From a virus: a DNA stretch of 54,457 bases. The stretch lies in the UHGV virus genome UHGV-0096558; one strand, written 5' to 3'. Shown piece by piece: positions 4,243 to 39,184 of the stretch. Position numbers and translations under genes: made by a program. Position 1 is the stretch's first letter, and each line of letters begins with the position of its first letter. Under the pieces are notes generated by a model. It was not told the origin of the DNA. It saw only the letters and a program-made list of their open reading frames with translations, and did no database searches.

Positions 4243-4330
4243 GTGAAGCCATTTTGTAAACTAGCTATAATCATTGTGATGAAGATCTCATTTTTTGCGT
4301 AGAATCGCGTAAAAGTATATACAAAATGTA
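4243..4330. promoter_or_regulatory. divergent control region carrying GTGAAGCCATTTTGTA (4243-4258, identical 16-mer at 1017-1032) and TATACAAAATGTA (4318-4330), then RBS and M start
   Basis: Read directly. Confidence 0.4.
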
Positions 4331-5780: not shown

Positions 5781-5909
5781 CATGCACCTCCGCGCCATTT
5801 TGTTAACTATGCTTCCGTTTGAGTAAAATATACATATTGTAAAAACCGCGATCAATCCATTTTGGTATGATTTAGCGTGACGCAGATCACAAAATGACAA
5901 GGTGAGAAA

Positions 5910-19052: not shown

Positions 19053-19259
19053 TTACACAATCCGCATTGTGTTTCGTAATTCACCGCGCAACGCCCGTAA
19101 TGCATCGCGCATTGGCACAAAAACCCGGTTAAATTTTACGTGTTTATATTTCCGCATCAGTGGCGGTGTATACACCTTTGCGTCGTATACTTCCCACGGA
19201 TAATAAACGCGCGTATCGTCAACAAACGTTTCAACTGAATAAAAGATTACCCGTCTCAT
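19053..19259 (-). CDS. hypothetical protein, 68 aa
   Basis: ORF track; in operon. Confidence 0.5.
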   Translation of the reverse strand: MRRVIFYSVETFVDDTRVYYPWEVYDAKVYTPPLMRKYKHVKFNRVFVPMRDALRALRGELRNTMRIV

Positions 19260-19849
19260 AATTCCAACCCCGTTTCACCGTTAAGTTTTTCGATCTCAAA
19301 TACTGGTTTATCCGGTAACAGGCCGTTATTTTTCCGGTATTCATTCAGGCGGCTGTCAAAATCAAACGCGAGATCATTAGCGTGACCGAAGCGCCCAGGT
19401 TTAAACAGTGAGTAAAAATTAAGGCCGTGCTTATTGGTGTCTATGCAAAGCGTTTCATCCAGTACCATTAAACGCAGCGTGCGCGACAGGTAATTCCACG
19501 GAATACCAGTTTCCGCGCTAATGTCACGCATACGCTTTTTAACGCTGTAGTCGCTAAATAACGCCGCCACACGATCGCGCCGTTGCGCATACAAATATTT
19601 AATTCGATACCCCAACAAGCGGCGGCGCGGTCCAAAATATGTATATACACGCTCAACAATACCAGTGTCGATTAAGTGTTTAATTGTCTCAGGTAAGCAT
19701 CCAGCTTCGTCATATTCCGCTGATAATCCTGTTTTCTGGCGTAACTGGTGCATTGTGTCGATGCCATCAAGTTCAAGGATATTGATAATTTTTGCTTCAA
19801 GTTCAATGCTCATTGTTTTTCGCCTCGTTTTAAGCACAAAAACAGCCAC
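19256..19849 (-). CDS. hypothetical protein, 185-197 aa (alternative start at 19812, MSIELEAKIINIL...)
   Basis: ORF track; downstream of helicase gene in same operon. Confidence 0.55.
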   Translation of the reverse strand: MAVFVLKTRRKTMSIELEAKIINILELDGIDTMHQLRQKTGLSAEYDEAGCLPETIKHLIDTGIVERVYTYFGPRRRLLGYRIKYLYAQRRDRVAALFSDYSVKKRMRDISAETGIPWNYLSRTLRLMVLDETLCIDTNKHGLNFYSLFKPGRFGHANDLAFDFDSRLNEYRKNNGLLPDKPVFEIEKLNGETGLEL

Positions 19850-21326: not shown

Positions 21327-22469
21327 TTACAAAATGGAATATTCAGGGTAATAAACAAAGCGCCCGATTTCCCCATGATCAGGACTGTAAATTATTACCG
21401 CAGCCAGCCGCCGCGACCGCCAGCCGCCATTCGTTGAATAAGCGTCTTTGCCAGCTAACGTGCCGTGATACTCAACAACGCCTAACGATGATTCAATCAG
21501 CCGTTGGTGGTGCCAGTGTCCGCAATGGGCGTAAACCGCCGCCGACTTGCCGAAATCCTCCCTCCAGTCAGAGACGCAGGCAGACAACAAATTTTCTGGT
21601 TTTTTGATAGTATGACCGTGATGATAGGCAAGGAATGTTTTGCCGTACTGTGTGTGGTGGACGATAGCAGGGGACACGTCAACCGTCACACGCGGTTCAT
21701 CTTCGTAAAAAGCCGCCAGCGCCGCACGTAGCCAAATCATCCCTGATTGGTCGTGGTTGCCGGATAATACCTGGATCTCGACGTCCTTATGATTTAGCAA
21801 CATCTTTCCGACCGCCCGCCGGACCGAACGGATCGCCACGTAAACAAGTTTTGCGTAGCGTGAATCACAATCTAAGACGTGGTTGCTTGATGGCGTCACT
21901 GGTAATAGCCCGTCAGTGTGAAGAATATCACCGCCTAACAACAAAACAGCCTTTTCAGACATTGGCGCAGCGCCTACCGCGTAGTCGAAGAAGTCATTTA
22001 GCACGCGTTCAGCGATCCCGGTGTCGTAGCTCTCACCGCATTCAGCTTTATGAGCAAGCGCCCCGATATGCAGATCGAATACCGGATAAAGGGCCAGGCT
22101 TTTTTGAAAATCAATTTCCGGCACTGGCACGGCCTCCGCGCGGGGTATTTCTTCCGTGAAGGCGTCACAAGCAGATTGCATTAGCATTTCCATTTCATCG
22201 CGGTCACGGGCTGTTTTAATCCAGCGCATAATCACATTGCCATCCTTATCGACGAGCAATGACTCAGCATTGACGCCAAAACCCGGTGCGCGGCGCGTGG
22301 ATATCAAACCGCGTTTCGCCAACCGTGCGCCCAGGCGTTCGACGTTGCGTTTTGCCATGCCATATTTTTCTGCGATCTGTTTATACGTCAGACCGTTATT
22401 ATGTTCAGCGATTAACTGTTCATCGCTGATCTTTCTTTGACACATAATGTTATATCCTCCGGTATACAT
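21327..22469 (-). CDS. fusion protein: N-terminal helix-turn-helix plus C-terminal calcineurin-like metallophosphoesterase; in the helicase-loader position
   Basis: HTH-like LTYKQIAEKYGMAKRNVERL; phosphoesterase-like motifs VFDLHIGA, GGDILH, GNHD, HCGHWHH; preceded by motif TATACAAAATGTATA and RBS GGAGG. Confidence 0.65.
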   Translation of the reverse strand: MYTGGYNIMCQRKISDEQLIAEHNNGLTYKQIAEKYGMAKRNVERLGARLAKRGLISTRRAPGFGVNAESLLVDKDGNVIMRWIKTARDRDEMEMLMQSACDAFTEEIPRAEAVPVPEIDFQKSLALYPVFDLHIGALAHKAECGESYDTGIAERVLNDFFDYAVGAAPMSEKAVLLLGGDILHTDGLLPVTPSSNHVLDCDSRYAKLVYVAIRSVRRAVGKMLLNHKDVEIQVLSGNHDQSGMIWLRAALAAFYEDEPRVTVDVSPAIVHHTQYGKTFLAYHHGHTIKKPENLLSACVSDWREDFGKSAAVYAHCGHWHHQRLIESSLGVVEYHGTLAGKDAYSTNGGWRSRRLAAVIIYSPDHGEIGRFVYYPEYSIL

Positions 22470-22500
22470 TTTGTATATTCATTGACAGCAAACAATCTCT

Positions 22501-23016
22501 TTATATGCTTCTTCTACCATGTCGAATACTTCCGGCCTGTAATAGAAAAAACTCATTACTACCATCAAATTTTACAGGGAAGTTAATTTTATAATTGCTA
22601 AAAGCCTTATGCATCGTGCTTTCTAATTCATGGATATTTTCAGTTGGCCCTTCTAACGTTTTCACGATATGCAAATCAGGAATTCTAACACCTGCTTTAT
22701 GTGCGCTTTTTAATATTTCATTTCTTCGCTCGTTCTCCTTAACGCTTACACCAATTTTCATTTGTGTAGGCACTTCCAGATCGTCAGTCATGATGTAAAG
22801 TTTACCGCGCTCATGACGAAGAAAGCCGTATTTTGCGCATTTTGGACAGCCGTCGCCGCGCTTAAGGTTGTGGGGTGTACACATCCTTTTATGGCCACAA
22901 ACTCTGCAGCGGCATAATACTTTTGTTTTGCTATTAATAATTTTCCCCAGCACTTCAACATCAGGATTAACTTTCGCAATAGCGGCAACATGTTCCTCAT
23001 GTGTTAACTTACACAT
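22501..23016 (-). CDS. T5orf172 / GIY-YIG-like domain protein with N-terminal zinc ribbon (CRCRVCGH...CPKC)
   Basis: Cys4 cluster and ...LYIMTDD...KIGVS...ENERRNEI... pattern. Confidence 0.45.
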   Translation of the reverse strand: MCKLTHEEHVAAIAKVNPDVEVLGKIINSKTKVLCRCRVCGHKRMCTPHNLKRGDGCPKCAKYGFLRHERGKLYIMTDDLEVPTQMKIGVSVKENERRNEILKSAHKAGVRIPDLHIVKTLEGPTENIHELESTMHKAFSNYKINFPVKFDGSNEFFLLQAGSIRHGRRSI

Positions 23017-23156
23017 CGATCCAACTCCTTAAAACACCTCAGACGCGCTACAACGCAAAATTCCACCGCGTAACCCATTTGCACAGGTTGCAGTGTCTTA
23101 TTGCGTCAGAGGCGCTATCAGGTGGCTAATTTTCGATTTACAGACTGGTAGGTAGG

Positions 23157-23391: not shown

Positions 23392-24390
23392 TCAAAGAGC
23401 GCCCGCGCGAGTATCACGTAGCGTTTTTGGTTTAAGCAGGAAATCAAGTGTCGCAGTGAAGCCATTGCCGAAGTAAAAATCTGAAGCCGTGTTTTTGAAC
23501 GTTTCGAAGTAGGCGACAAAGCCGTTAATGCTTTTGTCTTTCAGGTAGTCAGTGAACGCATAGATCTTGCGTTCAAGATCCCGATCCAGTTCGGCAGGTG
23601 GTAACAGGCCGTCAAACGTGCTGTTAAATGCTTCCACCACGTCGGCAGCGTTTACAGTAGATGATAGCTTGCGCCATTGTTCAGCATCAGCCAAATACCC
23701 ATCGAATTTAGTTACCCGGCAAATGTTAACAGGCTTAGGCACTCCACCACGGCTACGCCATTGCGTCAAAGCCCATTCGATTACTAATGTGATCTCATCC
23801 TCCGTGTATGCCTTACGTGTTTTTGTTTCTGTCAGTAGTTCGATAAATGGCTTAGCATCACGACATTTGCATCCTGCTTTTTCGTTGTAGAAGGCTAAGC
23901 AACGGTAAGCAGCCGCGCTTATCTGAAAGTCACCGTCCTGATTGACATGTTTTTCTCCCAGGGGGATATAAGGGGGTATATCTTTATTTAGATTCTCTTT
24001 ACTGGTTATATATGACTGATTAGGGTTGCTCTCTGCCACTACCCCAGGTTGCTTTGTGCCACTACCCTGGTTGCTCTCTGCCACTACCCCCGGTTGCTTT
24101 GTGCCACTACCTGACAGTGAAGGTAAAACGATTACATAGAAATTGCTCGTTTGTTCTTTCCCGCCGATTAAATAGCGAGGCTGTTTTAGTAACAAGCCTT
24201 TTTTGCAAAGCGCCTCAATTGCTCGCATTGCTGTACTTTTATTTATTTCGCATTGCTTCGCTATGTGCTGGTAAGAAGGGTAACACTCGCCGTTATCGTT
24301 AGCGTTATCAGCCAACTTTAACAGTACAAGTTTGTGCATTGGATTACCGACCTCAGTATGAAACACTTCGACCATTAGCCGCATACTCAT
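23392..24390 (-). CDS. replication initiator, lambda O-like (winged-helix N-terminus), contains iterons
   Basis: N-terminal HKLVLLKLADNANDNGECYPSYQHIAKQCEINKSTAMRAIEALCKKGLL; strong RBS AGGAGG; internal 22-bp direct repeats. Confidence 0.7.
   Translation of the reverse strand: MSMRLMVEVFHTEVGNPMHKLVLLKLADNANDNGECYPSYQHIAKQCEINKSTAMRAIEALCKKGLLLKQPRYLIGGKEQTSNFYVIVLPSLSGSGTKQPGVVAESNQGSGTKQPGVVAESNPNQSYITSKENLNKDIPPYIPLGEKHVNQDGDFQISAAAYRCLAFYNEKAGCKCRDAKPFIELLTETKTRKAYTEDEITLVIEWALTQWRSRGGVPKPVNICRVTKFDGYLADAEQWRKLSSTVNAADVVEAFNSTFDGLLPPAELDRDLERKIYAFTDYLKDKSINGFVAYFETFKNTASDFYFGNGFTATLDFLLKPKTLRDTRAGAL
24024..24113. repeat. four tandem 22-bp iteron-like repeats (GGTTGCTCTCTGCCACTACCCC / GGTTGCTTTGTGCCACTACCCT alternating) inside the initiator gene; candidate origin of replication
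   Basis: Read directly; encodes duplicated peptide SGSGTKQPGVVAESN. Confidence 0.6.
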
Positions 24391-24699
24391 AAATATTGGC
24401 CTCCTATGGTTAAAAATGAACGCGCGGGCGGGTATCCCATTAGCATTAGGTAGCAGTGATTGACCGCTTAACAGATCCCGCCGTTGCGTGATATTTGTTT
24501 TTCGCTTCGCAGCGACACCTAGTTTTTAAAGAGCATAAGGTATGCGCCTTTTTGTGCTATTCCGTTATCTTTTTTCTTGCGTCTTTGCAACTATGGCCTT
24601 ACCTTGTCTGCAAGTTTACAGAATGGCGTTTTTAGGTCAAGACTTGAAAAATACATTTTGTGACTTGTATCAAACTTTTTGAGGTTATAGGGTAGCGAC

Positions 24700-25347
24700 A
24701 TGAAAACAAAATGGTATGACTTAGCAAAGCAGCTCATGCGAGCGCAAGGTATGAGCCAAGATTCACTCGCGGATCTCATGGGGATAACTAAAGGCGGCCT
24801 GTCACACTGGCTTAACGGTCGCCGCGAGCCAAATCTTGAAGATATTGCGCGGATTATGCGGGCGCTTGGTCGTCGGCAATTCACTGTTACACATGATGGA
24901 ATGGTCATTGATGATTCTGTTTCTAACACGTTACCGGGAGCGCCGCAGCGTGATTTAGGTAGTTACCCGGTTGTTGACTGGAAGGACACAGTAAACAATA
25001 TGGATGATACAAGGCTATCAACATTACCACACGTTACGACTAGCGTTATTTGTTCAGATGATAGTTACTGGCTGGTTGCCAAAGGTGAATCAATGAACGC
25101 GCCGCAGGGGTTGAGCATCCCGGCGGGGACGATGATACTTGTTGACCCGCACGCGCCAGCTATTGACGGCAAACTGGTTATAGCCCAGCTTGAGGAAGGG
25201 CAGATACCGACGTTTAAACAGTTGATTATTGATGGAGGTCAAAGGCTTTTACGTTCGCTCAATCCGCTGTATCCGCCAATCCCTATGAATCCAGAATCAA
25301 AAATTATAGGCGTGGTGGTTGATGCGAAGATCGTAAACCTGCCATAA
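24700..25347 (+). CDS. cI: CI-like repressor (HTH plus S24 LexA-type autopeptidase domain)
   Basis: N-terminal HTH (SQDSLADLMGITKGGLSHWLNG); C-terminal ...LVAKGESM... and ...VVVDAKIVNL; divergent from replication operon. Confidence 0.85.
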   Translation: MKTKWYDLAKQLMRAQGMSQDSLADLMGITKGGLSHWLNGRREPNLEDIARIMRALGRRQFTVTHDGMVIDDSVSNTLPGAPQRDLGSYPVVDWKDTVNNMDDTRLSTLPHVTTSVICSDDSYWLVAKGESMNAPQGLSIPAGTMILVDPHAPAIDGKLVIAQLEEGQIPTFKQLIIDGGQRLLRSLNPLYPPIPMNPESKIIGVVVDAKIVNLP

Positions 25348-25352
25348 ACATT

Positions 25353-25378
25353 AGCCGCCGGATGGCGGCTTTACTTTG
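25353..25378 (+). terminator. terminator-like hairpin (AGCCGCC / GGCGGCT) after repressor gene, weak T-run
   Basis: Read directly. Confidence 0.4.
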
Positions 25379-25457
25379 CCCGGGAAACACCAAAACGTAA
25401 ACATAAAACGCCATTTATTGTTTAAATATCAATAATATATAAAATATTTTAAAAAAG

Positions 25458-25499
25458 TATACAAAATGGATTGACTCGGTGTTTTACGGGGCGTATATT
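25458..25499 (+). promoter_or_regulatory. candidate early promoter: motif TATACAAAATGGA then TTGACT (25471-25476), 17-nt spacer, TATATT (25494-25499); AT-rich upstream
   Basis: Near-consensus sigma-70 hexamers with 17-bp spacing. Confidence 0.5.
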
Positions 25500-25754
25500 G
25501 CGAGTCAAAGGAAGGTCGCAGGTAACAAAAAGCAACTTCCTGGCACTTTAAAAATCAGGCTTAACACCTTGTCAACCGTGGAGTAACTCCCCGATGGGGG
25601 ACCGAAAGCGGCACTGATAACAAGGCGCATGGGGTGTTTAAAGCGTTACATCCCCCACGAAACCGCACGCAAGGCGACGAGTCAGCTTGCTTGGAGTGAG
25701 CAAGGTCACGCTGGGAACGGCGATGATTGCGGGATTAGTTGAAAGATGTTAAGC

Positions 25755-25792
25755 CGCTCATTAACAATCTGGTCAGCCGCTGGAAGTGCGGC
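25755..25792 (+). promoter_or_regulatory. candidate nut-like site: boxA-like CGCTCATTAA (25755-25764) and boxB-like hairpin GCCGC-TGGAAGT-GCGGC (25776-25792)
   Basis: Inference from lambda nut architecture; lies in about 340-nt leader upstream of an arginine-rich small protein. Confidence 0.25.
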
Positions 25793-25847
25793 AATTAACG
25801 AAGATGATTTTTATTAAGTTTCATCAAGGATATACGGAGATCAGATT

Positions 25848-26138
25848 ATGAGCGTTACAATTATGTATGGCAAATGTGACAGTAAACTGAATGCCAGGGA
25901 ACGCAGAAGGATAAAAAGAGAAAACGAAAGAAAATCATCACCTGCAATCAATAAAACAGACAATGTGGATAAAGCTATTCGATTTGCAAACGAGGAAAGA
26001 TGCAAACCAAATAGCATTAAAGAACGTCGCAAAGGATCAGTAAAATGGTATACGGAAAATGAAAGCGGCAGCTACTACCACGCAACGCAACCACGCCATT
26101 TAGGGGAAAAACCCCTGGATAAAGTCCGCTACCATTAA
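25848..26138 (+). CDS. basic protein with N-terminal arginine-rich motif (RERRRIKRENERK); possible N-like antiterminator
   Basis: ORF track; first gene after long leader; arginine-rich motif reminiscent of lambda N. Confidence 0.5.
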   Translation: MSVTIMYGKCDSKLNARERRRIKRENERKSSPAINKTDNVDKAIRFANEERCKPNSIKERRKGSVKWYTENESGSYYHATQPRHLGEKPLDKVRYH

Positions 26139-26168
26139 TACAAAATGTAAACATTCGGAGGTGACATT

Positions 26169-26288
26169 ATGGTTATTCGGGCGCTTCAATTCAAACTGGC
26201 AGTAGCGGAAATGCTTCACGATGCCGAAATGTGGAGCGCCGCGAATAAAGCCTTATACATAGTGTTAACAGCACGGGAGATTAAATAG
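26169..26288 (+). CDS. small ORF, 39 aa
   Basis: Preceded by ATACAAAATGTAAAC and RBS GGAGG; stop overlaps Erf GTG start. Confidence 0.4.
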   Translation: MVIRALQFKLAVAEMLHDAEMWSAANKALYIVLTAREIK

Positions 26289-29526: not shown

Positions 29527-29625
29527 CCGAGTGATTCCGATCACATAAATATACATTTTGTATCGTGATCGCATATCCGTTTTGTAAGTCGAAATCAAAA
29601 GGTTTACGGTGCGGAGGAAGCAAAA

Positions 29626-33120: not shown

Positions 33121-33279
33121 AGTTCACAAAATGGCGTCATTGCGTGATATGGATCACATAATGGCGCTTTTCGCTTTGTTCTGGTGTATCCATATTGTAT
33201 ACTTCAAGCAAACAAAATGCTCTTTAAAAATCCGGCAGCGCTGAAATGCGTAGAAATCACCTGAAAAGGAGAGAGCATT

Positions 33280-39126: not shown

Positions 39127-39184
39127 ATGTGATCTTCATCACAAGGTATACAAAATGGCATTGTTTCGGCAGTGCCATTTTGTT
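39127..39184. promoter_or_regulatory. compound element: palindrome GTGATCTTCATCAC, then TATACAAAATGGCA / TGCCATTTTGT inverted repeat (11-bp arms, 11-bp spacer)
   Basis: Read directly; upstream of gene 39225. Confidence 0.4.

Follow-up and report, generated by a model that had tools for sequence, protein, structure and literature searches.

A non-coding segment between the repressor and initiator genes of an mEp021-like phage as the probable control region of a switch without Cro

Introduction

The CI/Cro double-negative circuit is the textbook bistable genetic switch. How might the same decision be taken by a phage that carries a CI-like repressor gene and no cro opposite it? This question is raised by the virus genome UHGV-0096558, that of a temperate E. 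coli phage, of which the whole stretch analysed here, 54,457 nucleotides long, is referred to as the window. In it, the genes of an O-like replication initiator and of a CI-like repressor diverge from a spacer of 309 bp (24391-24699) that is non-coding. Among its relatives are mEp010, mEp554, mEp044, mEp515, mEp013 and mEp021, which are Mexican E. coli phages; the mEpimmI group (immI) was described in 2025 (PMC11893012).

The comparisons presented below indicate that this 309-bp segment is probably the non-coding control hub of the immI cassette, which would work without Cro, by the action of the repressor at operator-like dyads and of the antiterminator Gp17 at a nut site, nutL. A preliminary description of the locus had reported the two genes with their divergent orientation and a strong ribosome-binding site (RBS) before the initiator, and both coordinates and gene calls were confirmed:

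23392-24390, minus strand: O-like replication initiator, 332 aa, with an HTH_36 winged-helix N-terminal domain, internal iterons and a C-terminal domain common with the Lin1244-type initiators of relatives
24400-24405, minus strand: Shine-Dalgarno sequence AGGAGG of the initiator, 9 nt before its ATG
24700-25347, plus strand: CI-like repressor, 215 aa, with HTH_3 (5e-13) and Peptidase_S24 (5e-19) domains

Search for coding sequences in the spacer and for cro in the genome

Homologues of the spacer were collected from 46 related loci, which together with the window gave 28 distinct sequences. No open reading frame (ORF) longer than 46 aa is present in the 309 bp. Two ORFs of 46 aa on the plus strand are intact in 4/28 and 5/28 of the sequences, being broken by indels of 1-3 bases at ~24535-24562, and one of 23 aa on the minus strand is intact in the window alone (1/28). 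A 28-aa ORF that starts with TTG and runs across the promoter region is intact in 26/28; its substitutions are distributed 11/11/14 by codon position, and the 35 distinct codon changes comprise 26 non-synonymous and 9 synonymous ones. It was rejected as a gene because the coding signature is absent despite its conservation, and all the small ORFs of the spacer were discarded likewise, as unconserved or without such a signature. The ORFs under 50 aa with alternative starts, for which the preliminary description had advised a search, thus yielded no conserved coding candidate.

The lack of a Cro-sized ORF in 309 bp is by itself statistically unremarkable. A tblastn comparison of the whole 54-kb window with genuine Cro sequences from related phages detected only the helix-turn-helix (HTH) of the repressor (E 5e-6 and 1e-7), the next best match having an E value above 0.3. 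A cro pseudogene in the leader was considered and rejected, its best match, 20 aa long, having E 0.01 when only the 330 bp were searched and E 33 over the full window. No Pfam HTH was found among the early ORFs tested, no tRNA or tmRNA was found by ARAGORN, and Rfam gave no match at gathering thresholds over the whole window nor at E <= 1 in 24300-25900. There is no small gene between the leftward promoter and the initiator, and no cII-like gene was recognised, no search aimed at CII having been made. The unusual point lies in the comparison with cro-bearing related phages, in which the corresponding spacers measure only 98-124 bp, versus 309 bp here. By all these searches this genome has no cro, as had been proposed from the lack of a Cro-sized ORF between initiator and repressor, and the lambda arrangement with cro first in the lytic operon opposite cI is not found in it.

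Could a Cro-like function be encoded elsewhere by an unrecognised small protein, for instance from an uncharacterised ORF in the early operon that runs rightward? Numerous early ORFs, 39-110 aa long, are without family assignment. However, the Pfam and tblastn results just given speak against this, and it would be atypical for cro to lie elsewhere than at the divergent promoter, so that such a gene is very improbable.

Divergent promoters and dyads beside the repressor gene

The half of the spacer next to the repressor gene holds a symmetric arrangement of predicted promoters and dyads, listed here with the corresponding elements of the rightward early promoter:

~24598-24680: symmetric promoter and dyad region, with back-to-back promoters
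24613-24640, minus strand: leftward early promoter from the consensus scan (-35 TTGACC, 24635-24640; 16-nt spacer; -10 TAAACT, 24613-24618)
24617-24627: left dyad TACAGAATGGC, a candidate operator that overlaps the leftward -10 and spacer, one mismatch from TACA-N3-TGKA
24637-24647: central palindrome TCAAGACTTGA, spanning both -35 regions (core CAAGACTTG, 24638-24646)
24652-24662: right dyad TACATTTTGTG, a candidate operator within ATACATTTTGTGAC (24651-24664), beside or over the repressor promoter
24644-24649 and 24667-24672, plus strand: weak candidate repressor promoter, TTGAAA, 17 nt, GTATCA, the mirror image of the leftward promoter
24686-24691, plus strand: alternative -10-like TATAGG, 9-14 nt before the ATG and conserved, which would give a near-leaderless mRNA, or else a Shine-Dalgarno sequence
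25460-25470, plus strand: dyad TACAAAATGGA abutting the rightward -35
25471-25499, plus strand: rightward early promoter TTGACT-17-TATATT, 10/12 consensus

Leftward transcription is predicted to start near 24606, and the -10 TAAACT is invariant in all relatives. The palindrome TCAAGACTTGA is the symmetry centre of a larger imperfect palindrome of ~61 bp (24608-24668), whose arms reach 27 nt in one relative (L005), and it is flanked by the left and right dyads in inverted orientation. The small palindromes noted earlier, CAAGACTTG and ATACATTTTGTGAC, are thus present, and the motif variant noted with them is a member of the over-represented ACARAATG / TACA-N3-TGKA family analysed below. At the rightward promoter, the block with the dyad is identical in 40/45 loci and the DNA upstream of it is variable. 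Neither candidate promoter for the repressor passes the consensus scan.

Three further resemblances in the region were rejected. An 11-nt perfect inverted repeat, AATGGCGTTTT / AAAACGCCATT (24622-24632 and 25405-25415), was discarded as an operator on the ground that both copies vary within one immunity. A CRP-like half-site (24659-24674) and an iteron-like stretch (24553-24570) are by-eye resemblances that look like chance.

The leftward leader: nutL and a conserved hairpin

The leftward transcript would begin with an untranslated leader of ~215 nt, made up of nutL, a hairpin of 70 nt and the RBS of the first gene. Its elements, with the other nut sites and the antiterminator gene, are the following:

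24523-24535, minus strand: nutL boxA TGCTCTTTAAAAA, ~70 nt downstream of the predicted start, identical to the boxA of nutR2
24502-24515, minus strand: nutL boxB hairpin UCGCU-GCGA-AGCGA, after a 7-nt spacer from boxA
24420-24489, minus strand: imperfect hairpin of 70 nt with G+C-rich stems ACGC/GCGU and GGCGGG/CCCGCC, predicted dG -25.5 kcal/mol, z -2.0
24410-24419, minus strand: U-rich tract UUCAUUUUUAA directly after the hairpin
25755-25792, plus strand: nutR1, boxA CGCTCATTAACAA and boxB GCCGCUGGAAGUGCGGC
~33218-33230: nutR2 boxA, with the sequence of the nutL boxA
25848-26138, plus strand: N-like antiterminator, 96 aa, with an arginine-rich motif, 94.8% identical to mEp021 Gp17

As in the lambda N/nut system, boxA is followed by a boxB hairpin downstream of the promoter. 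In nutR1 and nutR2 a CGCUG...GCG hairpin is placed much as in nutL. Gp17 acts on three nut sites, nutL being placed upstream of the repressor gene, as it is in the window, and nutL and nutR2 were reported as the most alike pair (PMC11893012), a statement with which the identity of their boxA sequences in the window fits. For mEp021, antitermination activity at this site is cited in the same paper as a result of Valencia-Toxqui et al. (2023).

The leader is unevenly conserved. Mean pairwise identity amounts to 99.3% in boxB, 96.9% in the hairpin and 96% in boxA, and to 89.7% in the promoter region and 88% in the mid-leader; the common substitutions in the hairpin sit at unpaired positions. We regard the hairpin as a candidate terminator or, as another candidate role, a structure for RNase III or translation control. 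In lambda, nutL is followed by a structured, RNase III-sensitive leader before the N start codon. Translation is repressed across that structure by the N protein together with Nus factors bound to nutL (PMC5725501).

The conservation of this block also bears on a different account of repressor expression. The repressor might be transcribed from a distal promoter, TTAACA-16-GATATT (24468-24495), facing the leftward promoter from ~100 bp away as in 186 and P2, with transcriptional interference and antisense pairing over nutL partly replacing Cro. It is the sole plus-strand consensus match upstream of the repressor gene (9/12), and its block is more conserved than the hairpin alone seems to need. 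The match is weak, however, since the scan gave 6 sites in the region versus 2.9 expected by chance; most relatives have another base at the second position of the -35, so that their match is only 8/12; and the block is missing from the cro-bearing sister lineage described below, in which the proximal promoter geometry is kept. A distal repressor promoter is therefore considered unlikely.

A separate observation concerns the rightward leader, of 350 nt between the rightward promoter and nutR1. A stretch of ~214 bp in it (~25527-25740) is near-invariant where present and cleanly missing from 7/33 distinct relatives. Its sole ORF encodes 37 aa (gp16 of mEp021), and it may represent an insertion or else a structured RNA. 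In structure prediction the rightward leader gives a stable closed domain (z -2.4), of which a GGCUUAACA/UGUUAAGCC helix is part, and it has no Rfam match.

A sister lineage with cro

A sister lineage (loci L051-L053, contigs of ~53 kb) carries a repressor, P0026, that is among the nearest outside the group. It is 55% identical to that of the window overall and 78% in its first 60 residues; the recognition helix, GITKGGLSHWLNGRREPN, is the same in both. As in the window, the gene order is helicase, a 370-aa exonuclease-like gene and rep on one side, and cI, an N-like gene, erf and ssb on the other. In these phages a 75-aa Cro of the HTH_3 type diverges from the repressor over a spacer of 124 bp, and boxA and boxB (CGCTCTTTAACAA...TTGCTGAAAAGCAA) follow just downstream of cro, before the initiator, which is exactly the PR-cro-nutR order of lambda. 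More distant Citrobacter prophages (repressor P0031) also have cro, as a 74-aa HTH_3 gene across a 98-bp spacer.

The promoter geometry is common to both lineages. On the minus strand, the block TTGATWCAAGTCACAAAATG, 27-46 upstream of the repressor ATG, and the block GTAAACTTGCA, 81-91 upstream of it and holding the -10 TAAACT, occur in the window and in the sister lineage at the same distances, and in both a dyad abuts the rightward -35. The predicted leftward promoter and the symmetric dyads are conserved and shared; the repressor promoter is a weak candidate. In contrast, the sister lineage is without the large hairpin, and no stand-alone winged-helix gene of the kind described in the next section was seen in it.

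Because the recognition helix and the promoter geometry are shared and the sister lineage has cro, the absence of Cro is specific to the immI lineage. By this comparison, the core of the switch is common to both lineages, and nut plus the large hairpin stand in the place of cro in immI. As to direction, cro is the common state in the outgroups, from which we infer that it was lost in immI.

The small winged-helix gene of the relatives

In 44/48 of the immI relatives whose loci are readable at this point, the first leftward gene is not the initiator but a winged-helix gene of 81-85 aa. That of mEp021, gp14, encodes 81 aa, lies between the leader and the initiator and is annotated as "putative helix-turn-helix, similar to MarR"; equivalents are found in mEp010, mEp515 and MagusPhagus. 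In the window no homologue of gp14 was found save the N-terminal domain of its own initiator (30% identity), and homology to every relative begins exactly at 24401, the RBS.

The junction can be read base by base. In the relative L038, the order is ATAGGAG-aaaaat-ATG(gp14)...TAG-tttatc-AGGAGGCCAATATTT-ATG(rep), with AGGAGGCCAATATTTATG as the joint between gp14 and rep, and in the window the leader ATAGGAG runs directly into GCCAATATTTATG / GCCAATATTT-ATG(rep). On these sequences, gp14 was deleted cleanly from one AGGAG ribosome-binding site to the next, or gained by the converse insertion; the initiator is the first gene of the operon here. The same junction is found in three complete E. coli genomes, PAR, KKa019 and Ecol_244, whose sources were a cockatoo (China), river water (Japan) and a human (Argentina). 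PAR and KKa019 have a different MarR-type gene, of 77 aa, downstream of rep; Ecol_244 and the window are without it. In a locus with the other initiator type (L044) the small gene is lost at a different junction, from ATG to the next ATG. No small winged-helix gene is present in the Ecol_244 prophage or in the 3.9 kb available from L044. The alignments thus indicate that the small gene, an apparently dispensable paralogue of the N-terminal domain of the initiator, was lost at least twice and that genomes without it circulate.

All the gp14 versions are placed by PHROGs with the N-terminal domains of initiators (phrog_4617, 391 and 8540, best value 6e-20). The Pfam matches are all weak and of winged-helix type (HTH_36, MarR_2, HTH_Crp_2), and the stand-alone protein does not belong to a Cro or HTH_3-type family. 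The N-terminal domain of the window initiator is 34% identical to the stand-alone proteins of relatives, and its start, MSMRLMVEVF...PMHKLVL, resembles that of the Lin1244-associated versions, MSMNMISEVW...PIQKLVL. The window initiator may be regarded in effect as a gp14-type domain fused to the shared C-terminal domain.

In phages whose control regions are near-identical, the recognition helix of gp14 comes in at least four strongly divergent subtypes, which track neither the iteron type (GGTCATGA or ACCATGGCACA) nor the variants of the control region. The idea of gp14 as the iteron-binding half of a split initiator was rejected, as three helix subtypes occur with GGTCATGA and two subtypes or none with ACCATGGCACA.

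These data bear on the main rival explanation, in which the gp14 family is the functional Cro of the group, by non-orthologous replacement, and the window is a Cro-less derivative biased to lysogeny or defective in lytic growth. The protein is Cro-sized, predicted to bind DNA and encoded first after the leftward promoter in most immI relatives, and a stand-alone winged-helix gene is unseen in the cro-bearing sister lineage. Winged-helix proteins hold the role of Cro in other phages, as Apl in 186 and Cox in P2. Against this, gp14 belongs to the initiator families named above and not to those of Cro, and the conserved DNA-reading surface expected of a Cro was not found in the family: its helices diverge despite near-identical operators and repressor, unlike a protein obliged to read those operators. 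Moreover, it lies behind nutL and the hairpin, so that it would be delayed-early rather than immediate-early; it was lost independently at two junctions, PAR and KKa019 having a small gene downstream of rep; and prophages without it exist in unrelated E. coli strains from three continents. We consider a Cro-like gp14 rather unlikely. By family gp14 is not a Cro, and it may still have a regulatory role. A small Cro-like ORF conserved in relatives, which the preliminary description had named as contrary to its reading, was thus found in part: the Cro-sized ORF is there in 44/48, but it is of the winged-helix initiator type, and a true HTH_3 Cro occurs, at the same promoter, in the sister lineage.

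Modularity extends to the initiators of the group and to the genes that follow. The initiators share a C-terminal domain of ~190 aa at ~90% identity, joined to one of two unrelated N-terminal modules (compare the window with L004-L008): HTH_36 with iterons of 22-23 bp, or a Lin1244 N-domain with iterons of 11 bp (GGTCATGA / ACCATGGCACA), a pattern of domain swapping at the origin. A variable slot (22484-23042) separates the initiator from the exonuclease-like gene and in the window holds a 171-aa protein (22501-23016, minus strand) with T5orf172, MUG113 and zinc-ribbon matches. In mEp021 the same slot is taken by a zinc-ribbon protein of 496 aa that has internal repeats; elsewhere among the relatives it carries a 353-aa protein, a MarR-type gene or a KilAC/Ant antirepressor. 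The slot is a hot spot for accessory or mobile genes; the KilAC/Ant antirepressor and the MarR gene of PAR type are both absent from the window.

A dispersed dyad motif

The word ACARAATG occurs 24 times in the window versus 5.6 +/- 2.3 expected, and the dyad TACA-N3-TGKA has 19 matches versus 2.8 +/- 2.0, about seven-fold, a perfect palindrome being counted on both strands so that the 19 matches represent 13 distinct sites. No shuffle reached either count. The dyad sites, whose fuller form is approximately GTWTACAAAATGKA, include:

998-1008
4320-4330
5831-5841
21328-21338
22465-22475
25460-25470
26139-26149
29552-29562
33189-33199

They are found almost only in intergenic junctions, often just before ribosome-binding sites; copies precede the helicase and exonuclease-like genes, and another follows gp17. 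The sites are conserved among relatives, with variation in the central bases. At one junction, the TACA/TGTA arms are kept and the three central bases vary (GAA, TTT, TAT), which is the pattern expected of a dyad-symmetric protein site. The repressor may bind at the TACA-N3-TGKA sites, which would make the motif a dispersed, stoperator-like repressor site; alternatively, another regulator may act there.

Two inverted pairs, ACAAAATG-N18-CATTTTGT, were observed at 999-1032 and 39150-39183. The latter can pair into a stem of 12 bp (core GGCATTG/CAGTGCC) with A- and U-tracts on its flanks, much as in a bidirectional terminator. Part of the motif excess may therefore come from terminator flanks.

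Proposed working of the control region

In the preferred reading, in which the 309-bp segment is the control hub of a cassette without Cro, the repressor of a lysogen would occupy the dyads and so shut both early promoters, the leftward one at the -10 and the rightward one next to the -35; it would also modulate its own weak promoter. Upon induction, cleavage of the repressor through its S24 domain would release the rightward promoter, from which Gp17 would be made. Gp17 and Nus factors would then load at nutL on leftward transcripts, allowing RNA polymerase to pass the hairpin, controlling ribosome access behind it, or both. The initiator and the helicase would be produced only once Gp17 is present, so that the replication genes would be late and dependent on Gp17. 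Lytic commitment would thus proceed with no counter-repressor of Cro type, and no Cro would turn down the repressor promoter.

Several points weigh against this account. The identification of the repressor's own promoter is uncertain, and the functions given to promoter, operators and hairpin follow from consensus, conservation and analogy. Both dyads of the spacer are one mismatch off the over-represented motif. Compensatory changes are not seen in the hairpin, since it scarcely varies, and the U-run is kept in only 7/28 distinct sequences, the others reading UUCACUCUAA; with the tract in a minority of relatives the terminator reading is weakened, and an intrinsic terminator becomes only one option. 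The window is an uncultured sequence, and lytic growth of this variant is hypothetical. Finally, the winged-helix gene in the position of Cro in ~90% of immI genomes, unseen in the cro-bearing sister, would also fit a substitute for Cro.

An evolutionary extension of the same account can be offered tentatively. Here, immI would have lost cro from an ancestor with the same operators and retained a repressor-only switch, with commitment through the N-like antiterminator at the nut-hairpin leader, by antitermination, by translational gating of the replication operon or by both, and with the dispersed dyads silencing the prophage in the manner of stoperators.

Phage group and neighbouring genes

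By megablast, the region matches the six Mexican phages named above and MagusPhagus at 88-95% identity with the gene order kept, and matching prophages were found in 35/5,426 complete E. coli genomes. Positions 24401-26200 of the window are 92-97% identical to members of the mEpimmI group. Members of that group have repressors of high similarity to Rep021, with ~96% identity shared among them, and the window repressor is 97.2% identical to mEp021 Rep021 over 215 aa. The gene order is also that of the mEp021 group: helicase, exonuclease-like gene and rep, divergent from cI, gp17, erf and ssb. By its repressor, by Gp17 with three nut sites and by its genome organisation, the window phage is an mEp021-like member of mEpimmI. 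When Rep021 was supplied from a plasmid, none of the six sequenced members in the authors' collection could infect (PMC11893012). The repressor used as a query against genome contigs gave no match. One viral contig, L020 (IMGVR_UViG_3300010283_000003), is 86-91% identical to the window and carries gp14.

The remaining features of the early region are these:

24024-24111, inside the initiator gene: four iterons of 22-23 bp, GGTTGCTCTCTGCCACTACCCCA
25353-25370, plus strand: intrinsic terminator with a G+C-rich hairpin, 3' of the repressor gene, also annotated as a terminator in mEp021 and mEp010
19256-19849, minus strand: 197-aa protein encoded after the helicase gene, with a winged-helix-like N-terminus by eye (IINILELDGIDTMHQLRQKTGLS...IKHLIDTGIVERV) and no Pfam match

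The iteron cluster is the presumed origin. The terminator hairpin and the consensus promoter that had been noted between the repressor and the plus-strand early operon are thus both in place, and the ORF map and domain scan put erf, then ssb, downstream of the N-like gene.

Significance and comparison with known systems

The mEp-like phages offer two close natural versions of one switch, with the same repressor reading head, promoter geometry and host, one having Cro and the other the nut-hairpin leader. Within the immI version there are further variants with and without the small winged-helix first gene. Such paired lineages permit a direct test of what Cro contributes and of its possible replacements, in a group that is common in the human gut, genetically tractable in E. 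coli K-12 and already provided with a validated repressor and antiterminator. The group itself has been known since 2025; the paper does not mention Cro for these phages, so that its lack is not discussed there, nor does it discuss the gene adjacent to the repressor, and its supplements hold neither nut sequences nor information on gp14 (PMC11893012). The contrast with the cro-bearing sister lineage and the natural variants without gp14 were found by the comparisons made here and are, as far as checked, unreported.

Compared with mEp021 and the 44/48 relatives in which gp14 stands between the leader and rep, the window differs by having no gp14. If the repressor binds the dispersed dyads, these would resemble two sets of dispersed repressor sites from phages without Cro, those of mycobacteriophage L5 (stoperators) and of phiC31 (conserved inverted repeats). 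As in those phages, a repressor-type dyad is over-represented genome-wide at junctions and early promoters of a phage without Cro; host, phage type and repressor family are different, and the sites of the window are candidates read from the sequence. With the leader of lambda N, that of the window shares a nut site, a large structured element and an RBS within ~200 nt, although here it precedes a replication initiator and not an antiterminator gene, and the role of the hairpin is a candidate one.

The likeness to lambda itself is extensive: a CI-type repressor with HTH and S24 autocleavage domains, predicted divergent back-to-back promoters ~75-95 bp apart with repeated dyads, a repressor gene followed by a terminator and by the promoter of an N-like gene, a replication operon diverging from cI, and boxA/boxB nut sites with dependence on Nus factors. 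The preliminary description had suspected a departure from the lambda switch, and in this it holds as regards the missing cro, the promoter-proximal nut site and the hairpin. However, two of its grounds fall away: a repressor co-directional with the early operon is the cI-(rex)-PL-N arrangement of lambda mirrored, and a replication operon diverging from cI corresponds to PR-(cro-cII)-O-P. Unlike lambda, the window phage has no cro and no recognised cII-like gene, none having been specifically sought; its nut site precedes the first gene, whereas in lambda it follows cro; a conserved hairpin of 70 nt separates nut from the first gene; the nut sites are three in number; and the operon that bears the N-like gene continues into Q-like, lysis and structural genes.

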